Origin: a virus
Lineage: Duplodnaviria > Caudoviricetes
Reading direction: 5' to 3' (one strand)
IMG/VR virus record: IMGVR_UViG_3300042973_000021
Location: 98,083 to 162,082 of that record
Length of the DNA: 64,000 nucleotides
The first letter of the stretch is position 1, and each line of letters begins with the position of its first letter. Shown one piece after another: positions 52,962 to 62,861 of the stretch. A model generated the notes under the pieces. The model saw only the letters and a list, made by a program, of their open reading frames with translations. It was not told the DNA's origin and did not search any database. Position numbers and translations under genes: made by a program.

Positions 52962-53633
52962 TTAGGCTTCCTCCTGTCTTTCCTTTGCCGGAGCTCCGTT
53001 CTTCCAGCTTGAGCTTCCGGAAAGGTTACGAAGCAGGATCTTTCGCTCCGCCTTGTACTCAGGCCCGATAAATCCGAGCCTAAGAAGGAAGCAGCGGAAG
53101 CTGTACTTTTCGTTTGTCACCGGAAGCTCCCTTTTGCTTGTGCGGTTAAGCTCTTTTGAAAGAGCGCACAGCTTCGCGATAAAGTCGGTGTAGGCTCTTG
53201 CCTCATCGGCATCCGGTGTTTCCTTAAACCAGGGAAATGCGATCCGATCATCCTTTACCTCGAAACCCAGGGCATCAACTCCCAAGGCATGGCGAATAAG
53301 CTTTCCTTTGGCGGTAAGCAGGTTGTCAAGGTTCTCAGTGTTTGCTTTATTAAGTGGAATCTCGACCGTAAGGCCGGCGCTTTCCAGGGTTTCCGCTTCC
53401 TCACTCTCCGGCTCTTCCGGGCTGAAGCTGACCTTTTCAAGCTCATCTCTTATGTGCATCATCTTCTCCTCATCATCACATACGACCGTCCCGTTCTTTT
53501 CCACGGTGACATCCCCGATCCTGTAGGCGCATGTCGGCATAAACTGATACTCGGATGTATCACCTGTGATCCGGCAGATCTCTGTGACCAGGGCTTTTCT
53601 TTCCTCGCCCTCTGCGTTGTAGCTTAGTTTCAT
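52962..53633 (-). CDS. Conserved prophage protein
   Basis: NEKYSFRCFLLRLGFIG...LLRNLSG. Confidence 0.7.
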   Translation of the reverse strand: MKLSYNAEGEERKALVTEICRITGDTSEYQFMPTCAYRIGDVTVEKNGTVVCDDEEKMMHIRDELEKVSFSPEEPESEEAETLESAGLTVEIPLNKANTENLDNLLTAKGKLIRHALGVDALGFEVKDDRIAFPWFKETPDADEARAYTDFIAKLCALSKELNRTSKRELPVTNEKYSFRCFLLRLGFIGPEYKAERKILLRNLSGSSSWKNGAPAKERQEEA

Positions 53634-53725
53634 AATGCGTACCTCCTTGCTTTGCTTTTGGTACGTACATATATCGCTCTGAACCGCTGTAATAGCAAGT
53701 CAATTCTGCTGTAATTTCCAACGAT

Positions 53726-54982
53726 TTAAGAGATTTCTTTCGGAAGATCATCGTAGGAGATTTTCTTCCCTTCACGGATCACATAACAGTCCGCGGAATC
53801 ATCGTCCTTAAACTGAATGTACCGTTTCACCGCCACATCGACGAACTTCGGCTCAAGCTCAATCCCGTAGCAGGTACGGTTAAGCTGCTCACAGGCGATG
53901 AGAGTTGAGGCAGAGCCAAGGAATCCATCAAGGACCAGGCCGTTTGACTGGGTGCATTGCTTTATAAGATACGCAATGAGCGGGACTGGTTTTGAACTAG
54001 GGTGTCCGAATCCATCCTTCGAGGAATCCCGGATACCATCGAATCCTTCAATCACCGAGGTCTGCTTCTGGTCGCCATACCAGGTGTGCTTTCCGTCCTT
54101 ACGCCAGCCAAAGATGATCGGCTCCATGTTGAACTTCCAGTCAGTCCTCATAAAAGGAGCTCTCGGCTTCTTCCAGATCAGGCCAGCACCGACCTTAAAG
54201 CCAGCATCCTCAAAGGCATCATAGAAGACTCTTGTCTTCATGGTGGCGTAGAACTCATAGATGGAAGCATCAGTAGCCATGACGTTCTTAAAGTTCGTAA
54301 AGCACTTCATGAGGAACTCGTAGGCTTCCTTGTCTCCTAGGTTGTCATTTTTAATCGTGCCTGACTTGTTCTTTAGCTCAACGAAGTAAGGCGCGTCGGT
54401 ACAGACGAGGTTTACTTTTTTGTCCCCAAGCAATTCTGTGTATGTATCTTCCTTGGTGGAGTCCCCGCAGATCACGGTGTGTCTGCCAAGATGCCAGATG
54501 TCACCGGTCCTGGAAAAGCAAGGCTTCTCAAGCTCTGCATCCACATCGAAGTCATCCTCCTGGCCTTCCGCATCGGTATCCATAAGCTTTGCCAGGTCCT
54601 TCTCGTCAAACCCCAGGAGGGACAGATCAAAAGCGTCCTCCTGCAGGTCGGACAGCTCTACAGAGAGCATCTCTTCATCCCATCCGGCATTTAATGACAG
54701 CTGGTTGTCCGCGATGATGTAGGCCCGCTTCTGGGCTTCGGTAAGATACTCCTCCTTCACACACGGGACCTGCTTTAATCCAAGCTTCTGGGCTGCGTAG
54801 AATCTGCCGTGGCCGCAGAGGATGGTATTGTCACCGGAGATGACGATGGGAGATAAGAAACCGAACTCCTTGATGGAGGCTGCGATCTGGGCGACCTGGG
54901 CATCGGAGTGTGTCCTTGCATTCCTGGCGTAGGGTATGAGCTTTTCGATATCTTCAAGATAATACTGTGTCTGTTTTTCCAT
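53726..54982 (-). CDS. ParB-N-terminal N6/N4 DNA methyltransferase
   Basis: YARNARTHS..GHGR ParB domain; TDAPY motif IV; HPSSKP; LDGFLGSAST. Confidence 0.85.
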   Translation of the reverse strand: MEKQTQYYLEDIEKLIPYARNARTHSDAQVAQIAASIKEFGFLSPIVISGDNTILCGHGRFYAAQKLGLKQVPCVKEEYLTEAQKRAYIIADNQLSLNAGWDEEMLSVELSDLQEDAFDLSLLGFDEKDLAKLMDTDAEGQEDDFDVDAELEKPCFSRTGDIWHLGRHTVICGDSTKEDTYTELLGDKKVNLVCTDAPYFVELKNKSGTIKNDNLGDKEAYEFLMKCFTNFKNVMATDASIYEFYATMKTRVFYDAFEDAGFKVGAGLIWKKPRAPFMRTDWKFNMEPIIFGWRKDGKHTWYGDQKQTSVIEGFDGIRDSSKDGFGHPSSKPVPLIAYLIKQCTQSNGLVLDGFLGSASTLIACEQLNRTCYGIELEPKFVDVAVKRYIQFKDDDSADCYVIREGKKISYDDLPKEIS

Positions 54983-55554
54983 TAGTTACCTCCGCTTCTG
55001 GCCCGAAGCAGCCGCTCCATCACATCATCCTGGGGATTTGATCCCTTGAACTCAGTCGAGCAGTTCTCCTTTACGATCTGGAAGATCTCGTCCCAGAGCC
55101 TGTTTGCCTGATTCATGTAGTTGATCCCGATGTTTATAAAGGGAGACGGGATCGGCCTTCCTGTCGTCGGGTGCTTGCCAAGGTACCCCAGCTTTGAGGT
55201 GATCTTCTCGCAGGCGATCCACCTGGCGGAGGCCATGGCGTAGCGCTCAAGAAGAGATGGAGATACCGCCCGGGCCACCCCCAGGCCGTCAAGCCACTCC
55301 CAGGTCTCCTTGTAGATGTCGGTTGCCGCAAGCTGAGAGCCGTCATGCTGGGTGTCTGACAGGAACTCATGCGGCTCCGGCATTTCCTCCCCTTCGATGT
55401 CTGGAATGTCCAGGACCTCAAGGGGCCTTCCGCCGGGATTTCCGTTCTCAAACTTTTCTATGGCGGCCTTTTTCTTCCGCCCTGCTCCGGGGCGCTTTCC
55501 TCCCCGGCCTCCGATGTTATTTGACTTTGTGGGCATAGAAAATGCTCCTTTCAT
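54982..55554 (-). CDS. terS: P27-family terminase small subunit
   Basis: RGGKRPGAGRK; PQDDVMERLL; located after the HNH gene. Confidence 0.8.
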   Translation of the reverse strand: MKGAFSMPTKSNNIGGRGGKRPGAGRKKKAAIEKFENGNPGGRPLEVLDIPDIEGEEMPEPHEFLSDTQHDGSQLAATDIYKETWEWLDGLGVARAVSPSLLERYAMASARWIACEKITSKLGYLGKHPTTGRPIPSPFINIGINYMNQANRLWDEIFQIVKENCSTEFKGSNPQDDVMERLLRARSGGN

Positions 55555-55664
55555 GCTGATTTTTACCGGGGTTTCGTGCCCGGGGCTATATTACCCTTTA
55601 GAATACGCGGTTTATGCGTAAACGACCCCGCGCCGTTTCCGTGAAGTATACAATTTAGAGATTT

Positions 55665-56027
55665 CTACCGGCCCTGCCTTGATTTAGTTTTTTGATGCAT
55701 CTTTTCGTGACAGGACCGGCAGAGACTCATGAGATTGTATTCCTCGCTGCTTCCTCCCTCCGAGAGCGGTACAATGTGGTGGACCTGCTCGGCCTTCACA
55801 TACCTGCCGTGCCTCAGGCACTCCTCGCAGAGCGGGTGCTTCTTTACGTAGCGGTCTCTGATCTTCTTCCACTTGTATCCGTAGCGTCTGTCTGCCGAGT
55901 AGCCTCTTGCGAAATGCTCGTAGTGCTTCTCCATGAACTTCCTGTGCTTCTCGCAGTACTGCTCGCCTTCCTCGGCAAAGCCCGGACAGCCGGGGTAGCG
56001 GCATGGCCGTTTGGGTTTAACTGGCAT
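55665..56027 (-). CDS. Packaging-associated HNH endonuclease
   Basis: HPLCEEC, VHHIVPL, NLMSLCRSCH. Confidence 0.9.
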   Translation of the reverse strand: MPVKPKRPCRYPGCPGFAEEGEQYCEKHRKFMEKHYEHFARGYSADRRYGYKWKKIRDRYVKKHPLCEECLRHGRYVKAEQVHHIVPLSEGGSSEEYNLMSLCRSCHEKMHQKTKSRQGR

Positions 56028-56052
56028 GCATCCTCACTTCCTTTTCTGCACG

Positions 56053-56500
56053 AAAAAACCCCGGAGGGAATTCCTCCGAGGCTTGGTAAATCTATGTTTT
56101 TGTCCTTTTTCACTAAGAACATGATAGCACTTCTGCCGACTGCATTCAACTGAACTCGACTGCACTTTACTGAACTCGACTGCACACTTTTACGTTCACA
56201 GTAAATGACCAGAGTCGTGCTATCATTCATGCAAAAACCCCGGAGGGAATTCCTCCGAGGTCTGATGCCGGAATGCTGTCCGGCTCTTTATACTATCTTC
56301 TGAGTTTATACTACCACAAATTTGAACTCGCATGTTGTTGCAAAGTGTTGCATTCTGTTGCAAAGCGTTGCAACTTTTCCGATGACGGTCAGCATCTAAG
56401 TTCTTCTACCATCATGTTCTATTCTACTAAGTATGTTATACCACATATTGACTGTGACATTCTACGACAAAGTATGCCAAAGTGCGACAAAGTATGACAA
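56053..56500 (-). promoter_or_regulatory. Late-control region: three 5x10-bp repeat arrays each with an extended -10, plus two copies of a terminator-like hairpin
   Basis: Arrays at 56139-56184, 56328-56372 and 56456-56500; hairpin AAAAACCCCGGAGGGAATTCCTCCGAGG at about 56054-56081 and 56233-56260. Confidence 0.7.
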
Positions 56501-56504
56501 CTTT

Positions 56505-56918
56505 TCATTCAGGCATGGAAAAGTTCTTAAGAGCCGACCCGTGGATGCGCTGAACAGTGCGGGTGGAAACGTTTAAGATGGCTGCGATCTCATCCCAGGT
56601 GTAGCCGTCTATGTAGCGGGAGCGAAGCACGATCTGCTCCTCACGGGAAGGCAGCAGGCTTATCTGCCTGCCGATTTCCTCGCGCTTGTCGATAAGCTTT
56701 GCCACCTTGCCTGCAACATCCCTCTCTGCCTCGTCGATACGCTCGATGCAGGCAACGAAGGCTGCGTCCGGTGTCTGAGCGCTGCCGTGCGGCATGCCAT
56801 CGAACTTTCCTTGGGAGATGGAGACGGACAGCTCTCTCCAGTAGTCAATCTCCCTTAAGCGGCAGTTTATCATTGCATCCAGGTGCCTGGCCTGGCCTAA
56901 GTATTGTTTAGGTGTCAT
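56505..56918 (-). CDS. RinA/ArpU/DUF1492-like late transcriptional activator
   Basis: KQYL.Q, C-terminal LRSRYIDG.TWDEIA..L..S.RTV.RIH HTH; last early gene. Confidence 0.82.
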   Translation of the reverse strand: MTPKQYLGQARHLDAMINCRLREIDYWRELSVSISQGKFDGMPHGSAQTPDAAFVACIERIDEAERDVAGKVAKLIDKREEIGRQISLLPSREEQIVLRSRYIDGYTWDEIAAILNVSTRTVQRIHGSALKNFSMPE

Positions 56919-57133
56919 CCCATGACCTCCTTTCTGATTTTCTCTATCACCATCTCCCCGTCCAAGTCTGTAAGAAGCAGGTACCAGTCCGAGCGGAAGA
57001 ACCTCTCCAGGGCTTTCTTCTGCGACCTGGCGGTATTGCTTGACGGGGACTTCTTTAAGGCCCGAAGCGCTGCCCGGTAGTCCTTTACAGCCTGCAGGAT
57101 GATGGCATTGGCAAGTCTCTCAACGGGCTCCAT
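56915..57133 (-). CDS. Conserved hypothetical phage protein
   Basis: LANAIILQAVKDYR...FFRS.W. Confidence 0.75.
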   Translation of the reverse strand: MEPVERLANAIILQAVKDYRAALRALKKSPSSNTARSQKKALERFFRSDWYLLLTDLDGEMVIEKIRKEVMG

Positions 57134-58482
57134 CAGACCACCCCCAGTCTTGCTTTTACAGCATCGATAAGGGAGTCCTGGGTCTTTTCCTTCCGGCGCA
57201 GAGCCGCCATGACGTTCTCATCGATCGTACCCTCGGCTATGATATGGTGGATCACAACCGGCTCCTTCTGGCCCTGCCTCCAGAGCCTTGCGTTGGTCTG
57301 CTGGTAGAGCTCCAAGGACCAGGTGAGGCCGAACCAGATGAGAGTTGACCCTCCTGCCTGGAGGTTAAGGCCGTGACCAGCGGAAGCCGGATGGATCATT
57401 GCGACCGGGATCTTTCCCTGATTCCAGTCGGCGATGTCCGCTCCTGTCTTTATCTCCCTCACAGAAAAGCGGCTCTTTATCCGCTCAAGGTCATGCTTAA
57501 ACCAGTAAGCCACAAGGACAGGTCTGCCATTGGCATCCTCTAAGAGGTCCTCCAAGGCATCAAGCTTTCTCTCATGGATCCTTACTGTCTCCCCGTCCTC
57601 TGTATAGACTGCCCCGTTTGCCATCTGAAGGAGCTTATTGGAAAGGGATGCTGCATTTACGGCATCGATCTCCTTGCCCTTGAGACTTAGCACCATGTCG
57701 CGCTTTAGCTTATCGTAGAGGGATCTCTCCGAGCTGCTTAGGTGGACCGGCACTTCGTTTATGAAGAGGTCAGGCATCTTAAGATAGTCGGCGGACTTCA
57801 TGGAGATCGTGATGTCTGAGATCTTTTTGTAGATGGCCTCCTCAGCTCCAGGAAGCGGCTTGTAGGAAAAGATGATCTGGGCATTTCTCTTGTCCGGGGT
57901 AAAGTAGTCTCTCCTGTACTGGCCGATGTAGCGCCCGAGACGCGCTCCCATGTCAAGGAGTCTGAACTCTGCCCAGAGGTCCATAAGACTGTTTGACGCG
58001 GGGGTCCCGGTAAGGCCCACCATGCGTTTTACCTTAGGGCGGACCTTGAGGAGGCTCCTGAAGCGTTTGGACTGGTGGGACTTAAACGACGAGAGCTCGT
58101 CGATTATCACCATGTCATAGTCGAATGGTAGACCGGACTTCTCCACAAGCCAGGTCACGTTCTCCCGGTTTATGATGTAGAGGTCAGCTTTAGCTAGAAG
58201 CGCTCTCCTCCTCTCTACCTCGGTACCGACTGCAACAGAGTAGGTGAGATCTTTAAGGTGGTCCCACTTGCCGATCTCATCCGGCCAGCTGTTGGCTGCT
58301 ACCCGGACTGGCGCGATGACCAGAGGCTTTCTCACTTCGAAGCGGTCAAACATAAGCTCCTTTACAGCCGTCAAGGTGATCACGGTCTTACCCAGGCCGC
58401 AGCTTAGGAGGATGGCTGAGACGGGGTGGTCTATGATAAACTTCGTGGAGTAGTCCTGGTAGCTATGAGGATTGTATATCAT
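57133..58482 (-). CDS. SNF2-family helicase
   Basis: GLGKT, IDELS, GLTGTP, GHGLNLQ, Q.NARL.RQGQ. Confidence 0.92.
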   Translation of the reverse strand: MIYNPHSYQDYSTKFIIDHPVSAILLSCGLGKTVITLTAVKELMFDRFEVRKPLVIAPVRVAANSWPDEIGKWDHLKDLTYSVAVGTEVERRRALLAKADLYIINRENVTWLVEKSGLPFDYDMVIIDELSSFKSHQSKRFRSLLKVRPKVKRMVGLTGTPASNSLMDLWAEFRLLDMGARLGRYIGQYRRDYFTPDKRNAQIIFSYKPLPGAEEAIYKKISDITISMKSADYLKMPDLFINEVPVHLSSSERSLYDKLKRDMVLSLKGKEIDAVNAASLSNKLLQMANGAVYTEDGETVRIHERKLDALEDLLEDANGRPVLVAYWFKHDLERIKSRFSVREIKTGADIADWNQGKIPVAMIHPASAGHGLNLQAGGSTLIWFGLTWSLELYQQTNARLWRQGQKEPVVIHHIIAEGTIDENVMAALRRKEKTQDSLIDAVKARLGVV

Positions 58483-61956: not shown

Positions 61957-61991
61957 GTAGCCTCGGGAAGATACCGAATCTGACGTTTTTT
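61957..61991 (-). promoter_or_regulatory. Putative phage-sigma promoter, copy 3
   Basis: AAAAACGTCAGATT-N13-AGGCTAC abutting the sigma gene stop. Confidence 0.7.
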
Positions 61992-62505
61992 AAAAAATTT
62001 CTCTGAGTTTTTTCAGTGCGCGGGAAAGCTTGTGGCTTACACTGCTCTCGCTCATGCCATGCTGACTGGCATATTCCTTTACCGGGACCCCGTCAATTCG
62101 TATGGCAATAACGATGTCTGCCCAGTCTGGATGCTTTGGAAGAGCTTCCCTTACACGGCGGCAGGTCTCCTCATCTTCGTCAGAGTCGTAGTCGCCAAAG
62201 GTAATGACCAGATTCTCAAGGACATCAAAGTCCGTGTCCCCAGGTGCCGGTGTGATGTATCCCTTCTTTCCGTCCAGACGTCTGACCTTTGGAGTTGGGT
62301 CGATGTGGCGGGTCTCCTTATGCCAATTGTTGTACTCTGGCTTGTTGAACTTTGCCTCGAACTCCTCCTGGATGCGTGCCTCGTTCTCCTCCTGACTGGC
62401 ATCAGGATCCTCCTCGATGCCAAGGGTCACATACATACCCTTCATTGCCTTCTCGTCAAGCTCTACTTCCTGGTATTCGTTCTCGTAACGGATCTTCAGT
62501 TTCAT
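61990..62505 (-). CDS. Phage sigma-70 region 4 / ECF-like sigma factor
   Basis: Start MKLKIRYEN after AAAGGA; C-terminal VKEYA...ESSVSHKLSRALKKL HTH. Confidence 0.72.
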   Translation of the reverse strand: MKLKIRYENEYQEVELDEKAMKGMYVTLGIEEDPDASQEENEARIQEEFEAKFNKPEYNNWHKETRHIDPTPKVRRLDGKKGYITPAPGDTDFDVLENLVITFGDYDSDEDEETCRRVREALPKHPDWADIVIAIRIDGVPVKEYASQHGMSESSVSHKLSRALKKLREIF

Positions 62506-62861
62506 GCTGCATTCCTTTCTGCCGGATGTAAGGGCAGCGGAATGCAAAAGGAGCCTGCGGCTGAAGACGACCGCAGACTCCCAGAAAGCCAAAATGGGCA
62601 TAGGAAAGTACGGTGGGTGCATCTTCATCCCTGACAAAGCCTTGTTGCTTTGCCTGGAGTCTCTATGCATCCCGCCGTCCTAATGGCCATCTCGGACTTT
62701 GAGATTAGTAATTGTCTATGAGTGCTGAGCACTCATATGGGGCCAGCTGTGCTGACCTCATATCAATGCTCAGAACAGATATAGGATTTTTTAAGTTCGC
62801 AAACATGATAAGATAAGATCTCTGTTATGGCCCGGGCAGTGATTGCCTGATTATTAAGCAC

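Follow-up and report, generated by a model that had tools for sequence, protein, structure and literature searches.

The 477-bp gap that separates the late activator gene (56505-56918, minus strand) from the HNH/terminase genes of this phage contains three arrays of five 10-bp repeats, and we consider it likely that these arrays mark three tandem Ltr late-promoter units, of which unit A alone belongs to the resident activator and units B and C were orphaned by module swaps, with the transcript from the cognate promoter P_A reading through the two terminators T_B and T_C further downstream. The single unit is already known as the Ltr late-promoter kind; three specificities in series, two of them orphaned, are new. 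In the following, the window refers to the whole stretch of 64,000 nucleotides that was analyzed, which is part of a 162-kb record (IMGVR_UViG_3300042973_000021), and numbers preceded by L refer to related loci gathered for comparison. The genes, arrays and extended -10 elements concerned are the following:

56505-56918, minus strand: resident late activator, 137 aa, Ltr superfamily, with a sigma-70 region-4-like helix-turn-helix (HTH) and the recognition helix ..VSTRTVQRIHGSALKNF..
56451-56500, minus strand: array A, repeats TTGTCATACT / TTGTCGCACT / TTGGCATACT / TTGTCGTAGA / ATGTCACAGT, core TTGTC(A/G)
56435-56443, minus strand: extended -10 of cassette A, TGgTATAAC
56324-56373, minus strand: array B, repeats TTGCAACGCT / TTGCAACAGA / ATGCAACACT / TTGCAACAAC / ATGCGAGTTC
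56308-56316, minus strand: extended -10 of cassette B, TGgTAGTAT, same as in L018
56136-56185, minus strand: array C, repeats GTGCAGTCGA / GTTCAGTAAA / GTGCAGTCGA / GTTCAGTTGA / ATGCAGTCGG
56121-56129, minus strand: extended -10 of cassette C, TGcTATCAT, same as in L157/L158
55665-56027, minus strand: HNH endonuclease, the first late gene (Pfam HNH, 2.9e-14)
54982-55554, minus strand: TerS, small terminase subunit (phrog_83, 3e-36)

A preliminary description of this DNA had reported three arrays of five repeats at an exact 10-bp period, each with its own core and each followed at a nearly equal distance by an extended -10. All of these elements are present in the sequence on the minus strand, and the distance from the start of the last repeat to the TG of the extended -10 is 17, 17 and 16 nt for A, B and C, respectively. 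Array B consists of four TTGCAAC/ATGCAAC repeats and one degenerate repeat, and (G/A)TGCAGT alternates with GTTCAGT over the five repeats of array C. When the whole 162-kb record was scanned for lag-10 matches in a 40-nt window, arrays A, B and C were the only peaks with at least 26/40 matches (the maximum in 20 shuffles being 25/40), and each of the three motif types occurs once in the record. Array A begins 5 nt past the stop codon of the resident activator. The -10 hexamer of cassette A, TATAAC, which is also encountered in L160/L163, lacks the final T present in 87/95 related cassettes, and a second -10-like hexamer (CATACT) lies 5 nt downstream of the extended -10, most relatives likewise having a second one. 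Since the conserved final T is missing and cassette A has no terminator of its own (see below), P_A could be weak.

Searching the gap region against Rfam returned nothing relevant, only chance matches to nadA and His_leader. A 128-aa open reading frame at 55844-56230 was rejected as spurious; it has no Shine-Dalgarno sequence and spans array C and the terminator. Array C lies between the two arms of a perfect 10-nt inverted repeat (ATGATAGCAC / GTGCTATCAT, at 56121-56130 and 56217-56226), which places a second TGcTATCAT on the plus strand, facing the activator gene; this may be due to chance or may be an antisense promoter.

The resident activator contains the Pfam domains Sigma70_r4 (9.5e-9, 35.1 bits; cut-off 24.1) and DUF1492 (3.9e-7, 30.6 bits; cut-off 21.5), in addition to Sigma70_r4_2, and matches phrog_36 (transcriptional regulator) at 2e-24. 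The same Sigma70_r4/DUF1492 domains are found in the activator alleles of L157, L018 and L002. Together with the published ltr repeats (PMC3753634), these domains support the earlier proposal that the arrays are activator sites of late-promoter cassettes. The gene order on the minus strand is SNF2 helicase (57133-58482), a 72-aa open reading frame, the activator, the gap, HNH, TerS and a ParB-methylase, followed by the large terminase, portal, protease and capsid genes; as in Ltr modules, the activator is the last gene ahead of the packaging genes. The late genes of the window are long, unbroken reading frames. An GGGGCGGT..AAATCTCTA element located between HNH and terS (~55650-55680 of the window, minus strand, GGCAGGGCCGGTAGAAATCTCTAAATTG) is kept in most related loci (L002, L004, L010, L018, L039, L056) and is a candidate cos site of these HNH-dependent phages, a better one than the arrays.

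As stated in the preliminary description, the window encodes only one Ltr-type activator. A second allele, 32% identical, is found in prophage 1 of the same record, which contains a single cassette of a fourth motif type (TGTCC). No B-type or C-type activator was found elsewhere in the 162-kb record, in which the two known alleles and two weak matches were the only candidates. The window also encodes a 226-aa protein with a sigma-70 region 4 domain (61990-62670, minus strand) that has no relationship to the Ltr-type activator and is probably a phage sigma factor of the early or middle class.

For comparison, approximately 100 distinct loci encoding relatives of the activator were gathered via the activator protein, the array motifs and the HNH gene that follows the gap. 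These loci have a common layout, consisting of the activator gene end, a 10-bp-phased array, TGnTAnnnT, an A-rich leader, a hairpin with a T-run, a ribosome-binding site and the first late gene, and the arrays of relatives often begin inside the last activator codons or a few nucleotides after them. The TGnTAnnnT element is present in 87/95 cassettes compared to 11% of random windows, and a hairpin plus T-run of -10 kcal/mol or better in 88/93 cassettes compared to 6.7% of controls, suggesting that late transcription in this family must pass a terminator. Among the distinct cassettes of the family, the leader hairpin has a median free energy of -17.8 kcal/mol and is located at a median of ~68 nt past the -10; its sequence varies among loci, and a YTATGC motif past the T-run is conserved. 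The distance from the activator stop to the HNH start is 88-170 nt in relatives, with the exception of three loci in which another gene is inserted between activator and HNH, versus 477 nt in the phage analyzed here, and a second array was found in none of the other ~100 distinct loci.

Two further arrangements were observed in this survey. In L023, L027, L049, L069 and L074, a stretch resembling a tRNA gene (by eye) is present between the activator gene and the ATGCAACT/TTGCAACT array, indicating that the operator does not always adjoin the activator coding sequence. In L224 (uncultured Clostridia MAG), a small reverse-strand gene lies between the leader terminator and HNH, indicating that the site behind the leader terminator tolerates insertions.

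We sorted ~85 distinct helix/array pairs by the recognition helix of the region-4-like HTH. Across these pairs the recognition-helix class and the repeat motif co-occur, pointing in silico to allele specificity, as exemplified by the following pairs:

Recognition helix VS(I/V/L)RTVHRIH: motif TTGGCAC / TTGTCAC
Recognition helix VSERTVFRIH: motif TTGGCAGT
Recognition helix ADRTTVYRWH: motif TTGCAAC
Recognition helix ADARTIRRWH: motif TGTCC
Recognition helices SERTVY.IH and SERWIYTQH (SER(T/W).Y..H) as well as SLRWVYSLH: motif T(G/T)CAGT
Recognition helix.RWVH..H: motif TTCAC

Overall, ~25 recognition-helix classes, each with its own 10-bp motif, were distinguished among loci L002-L236. A leading E in the helix pairs with ..CAGT, ADRTT with TTGCAAC and ADART..RR with TGTCC, and the B-type and C-type helices differ from the resident helix at most positions. 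In contrast, the packaging module does not predict the motif. This can be seen in L149 and L009, two prophages in one 214-kb contig (IMGVR_UViG_3300046030_000049), which have the same terminator and HNH sequence and differ in activator, array and -10. Their identity in terminator and HNH sequence places the exchange joint in the leader, between the -10 and the terminator. Since the arrays thus track the activator allele and not HNH/TerS, this comparison of sequences would rule out that they are terminase/cos sites.

The leaders of the three cassettes of the window contain the following elements:

56391-56434, minus strand: leader of cassette A, cut short, as rich in A as those of relatives, own terminator absent
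56267-56284, minus strand: small leader hairpin of cassette B; B-type and P1-type relatives have one in the same spot with another sequence
56233-56260, minus strand: terminator T_B, stem-loop 56238-56260, U tract 56233-56237, a 28/28 copy of T_C
56053-56081, minus strand: terminator T_C, stem-loop 56059-56081, U tract 56053-56058, ~25 nt before the HNH start codon

T_B and T_C were found by folding and are missed on the minus strand by a simple terminator scan. The predicted hairpins consist of a 9-12 bp stem followed by U5-U6, with values of -32.2 and -20.3 kcal/mol for the two leaders. In agreement with the earlier claim of a common 28-bp hairpin ending two of the cassettes, B and C end in one shared hairpin (33 nt, 94% identity, including an exact stretch of 28/28 nt). 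The leader of cassette A tracks those of its relatives to the start point of their terminator and breaks off there, making this locus (L001) one of the 5/93 cassettes without a hairpin plus T-run within 170 nt. The cognate promoter is thus followed by both T_B and T_C, and late transcripts have to pass these two intrinsic terminators.

Each of the three cassettes can be traced to relatives. Loci whose activators are 72-74% identical to the resident one carry TTGGCAC/TTGTCAC arrays in the same place, and the DNA homology of the window to these loci extends from the helicase across the activator into the first repeats, ending at ~56470-56475; array A is therefore the presumed cognate operator of the resident activator. 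Cassette C has a different history. Positions 53500-56191 of the window share 91% identity with a pair of contigs from MAGs of Candidatus Weimeria sp. and Eubacterium sp. (L157 and L158), in which a different activator allele (..FSERWIYTQHGRALQEL..RVQSSSVKCS*) ends within the same five-repeat array C, followed by the same -10, leader, terminator and HNH gene. Because the homology to L157/L158 starts exactly at the upstream edge of array C, with the C-type activator overlapping the array in those contigs, cassette C is, judging from these alignments, the native late promoter of the HNH-terminase-head module, the activator gene of which has been replaced.

Cassette B is closest to L018/L155, where it lies behind ADRTTV(W/Y)RWH alleles, and agrees with them in its array, in the -10 with the start of the leader (TGGTAGTATAAACTCAG) and in having the small leader hairpin. 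In addition, the ~17 nt that precede array B can be aligned to the final codons and the stop codon of the L018 activator gene:

56374-56390, minus strand: 3' remnant of a B-type activator gene, GACCGTCATCGGAAAAG compared to ..CCGATCCTGATCTGAAAG in L018

This remnant suggests that B arrived with, or was left by, a now-deleted B-type activator gene. The terminator of cassette B is not that of L018 and is the exact copy of T_C, suggesting that the B/C joint formed next to this hairpin. Arrays of the B type were also found directly behind another activator allele in L020, L056 and L170, in addition to L018 and L155, and C-type arrays directly behind other alleles in L172 and L132-L137, in addition to L157/L158. 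Prophage 1, which had been proposed as a possible carrier of array B or C, has neither, its array being of the TGTCC type, and was rejected as a partner for both. Searches of viral and metagenome collections with the exact B/C junction gave no double-stack intermediate and returned only the sister contig described below. Taken together, the breakpoints and the remnant of the B-type activator gene lend good support to the reading of the stack as what two module swaps left behind: recombination replaced the early region, B and C thereby lost their own activator genes, and the joints fell directly on the upstream edges of their arrays. This is in line with the earlier suggestion of a record of past module swaps; the suggestion that the additional arrays act as decoys found no support.

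The identical stack is present in a sister phage, represented by a 20.4-kb metagenome contig (IMGVR_UViG_3300022137_000008, corresponding to Ga0214925_100434) with 95.4% identity overall. This contig is identical over 55800-57000, ~12% divergent in terS/methylase and divergent again past 59400, so that the triple stack falls within a block of 1.2 kb without differences between the only two records carrying it. The joining of this block to two different backgrounds indicates that it has recombined into at least two of them and argues against a dead prophage. Prophages of this type, with differing activator alleles, number two to four in several genomes, among them the MAG of uncultured eubacterium 1-6 UMB00020 (L161, L162, L176, L192), Eubacterium sp. 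F2 (L165, L172) and another genome (L158/L160), and phages of the B, C and P1 types are present in Ca. Weimeria and Eubacterium genomes. The presence of several alleles per host genome provides the opportunity for swaps and the setting for cross-talk.

The individual cassette closely resembles the late (terS) promoters controlled by Ltr proteins in temperate phages of Gram-positive bacteria, such as RinA (80alpha, phi11, phi29), LtrC (phi55, Phi13) and ArpU (phiFL2A) (Quiles-Puchalt et al. 2013, PMC3753634; Ferrer et al. 2011, PMC3152322; PMC13123087), LtrA being represented by a Sigma70_r4 protein (phage 37) and LtrB by a DUF1492 protein (S. suis prophage) (PMC3753634). In these systems, repeats just distal to the ltr gene are needed for activation, are bound by the protein and are allele-specific, with no cross-reaction between families and a weak one between RinA alleles (PMC3753634). 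Common to them and the locus analyzed here are an activator that is the last early gene before the packaging genes and contains a Sigma70_r4/DUF1492 domain, allele-specific direct repeats at or closely behind the 3' end of its gene, a terminator located between activator and packaging genes, and the movement of activator and repeats as a module. Repeats at the 3' end of their own activator gene are found here for A, and arrays of the B and C types adjoin activators in L018/L155 and L157/L158. In contrast to the known systems, three operator-promoter units follow one another, for two of which the record encodes no cognate activator, and the repeats are strictly 10-bp phased with five per array. 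In phage TP901-1, the four repeats bound by Alt extend from -76 to -32 (Pedersen, Kilstrup and Hammer 2006, as cited in PMC13123087), in agreement with the location of the arrays here at ~-72 to -23. The resemblance to its P_late includes the number of imperfect direct repeats (four to five, over ~-76 to -32) and a -10 without -35, whereas Alt, by the same account, belongs to another protein family and acts on a single cassette.

A terminator between late promoter and late genes, the feature of Q-type control, is found here in T_B and T_C and in the 88/93 cassettes mentioned above. In lambda, the constitutive late promoter PR' is followed by an intrinsic terminator (tR') that is passed with the antiterminator Q. 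Termination after PR' yields a short RNA (PMC7547250). Similarly, a terminator that has to be passed lies within ~50-120 nt of the late promoter here, and an early stop would lead to a short RNA; however, PR' is active constitutively, Q does not belong to the sigma region-4-like proteins, and the resemblance to Ltr is functional only. We found no report in the literature of antitermination by Ltr proteins or of stacked late promoters or Ltr operators. Cross-activation between elements is known from P2 Ogr with P4 Delta and from helper-phage late activators acting on the packaging operons of satellites (SaPI/PICI). One element there bears operator sites for the late activator of another, as might be the case here, but those sites are the sole control, by design, whereas the candidate foreign-type sites described here lie behind a cognate one in a complete phage.

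We propose that each unit consists of phased activator sites at ~-72 to -23, an extended -10 without -35, a short leader and a terminator immediately ahead of the first late gene. Upon induction, binding of the resident activator to array A would recruit host RNA polymerase to P_A, and the resulting transcript would run for ~400 nt through B, C, T_B and T_C into HNH-terS. Passage of T_B and T_C would correspond to the read-through that relatives need for their single leader terminator, needed here twice; given that every relative passes one such terminator, some read-through mechanism would belong to the design of the family. This could involve a polymerase rendered resistant to terminators, as by Q in lambda, or no more than incomplete termination. 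Without any read-through, P_A transcripts would stop at T_B and the phage would need another cassette. P_B and P_C would probably be silent in a single induction with the resident activator, because the record contains no cognate protein and the helix classes differ at most positions. If fired, P_B would give rise to a short RNA of ~70 nt ending at T_B. A phage encoding a B-type or C-type activator, whether resident in the same cell or superinfecting it, could fire the intact P_B/P_C, and such activation in trans, suggested earlier as eavesdropping, is plausible since the orphan cassettes are intact and the hosts often carry several prophages with different alleles.

It is conceivable, although in our opinion unlikely, that the stack is instead a selected three-input late promoter (OR gate), with B and C kept so that foreign B- or C-type activators fire the packaging, head, tail and lysis genes. 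In both B and C, the array and the -10 element are undamaged and agree with those of the cognate cassettes, complete arrays were preserved at both joints, and none of the five core hexamers of C (0/5) differs from L157 compared to ~6 changes at non-core positions; the frequent presence of several prophages with different alleles in the hosts of this group, and the occurrence of B-, C- and P1-type phages in Ca. Weimeria and Eubacterium genomes, would provide the inputs. However, the swaps look recent, so that intactness needs no selection, the stack is confined to one lineage among ~100 distinct loci, and the identity of the block in the only other record leaves no differences to compare. The fourth motif of prophage 1, moreover, leaves the stack with no partner within this record. 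If the three inputs were nonetheless real, the prophage would sense and exploit, or abort or sabotage, the lytic growth of a competitor, and the position of the cognate promoter furthest upstream would imply that Ltr-started transcription is terminator-resistant.

The co-occurrence of motif class and helix in the ~85 pairs, the dissimilarity of B- and C-type helices to the resident one at most positions and the published lack of cross-reaction between Ltr families, with a weak one between RinA alleles (PMC3753634), make it improbable that the resident activator, or one protein of relaxed specificity, uses all three arrays as working promoters in series, despite their common 10-bp phase, repeat number and distance to the extended -10, the T(T/G)..C skeleton shared by their motifs and the degeneracy of some arrays of one class (e.g. 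L166, L173). We give hardly any credence to a role of the arrays in DNA packaging (TerS/cos) or replication (iterons) rather than in transcription. Their location just upstream of HNH-terS and their phasing, typical of sites where a protein oligomer wraps DNA, would fit such a role, but each array is bound to a TGnTAnnnT at fixed distance, the motif follows the activator allele and not the HNH/TerS module (L149 versus L009), and the window and L157 share the packaging module together with array C, which in L157 lies inside the C-type activator gene; in addition, the GGGGCGGT..AAATCTCTA element is the better cos candidate.

In a very large proportion of the temperate phages of Firmicutes, packaging and lysis depend on activators of the Ltr type, which are regarded as strictly allele-specific. 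The locus described here shows the exchange of activator plus operator in one place, with joints at the operator edge and the old operators left intact. With three operators whose origins are known placed ahead of a single operon, it offers a test bed for cross-talk between co-resident phages, and the two strong terminators between the cognate promoter and the late genes sharpen the question of how Ltr-dependent transcription passes terminators. Finally, the helix-to-motif table, comprising ~85 natural pairs, provides a starting point for a DNA-recognition code of sigma region-4-like proteins.
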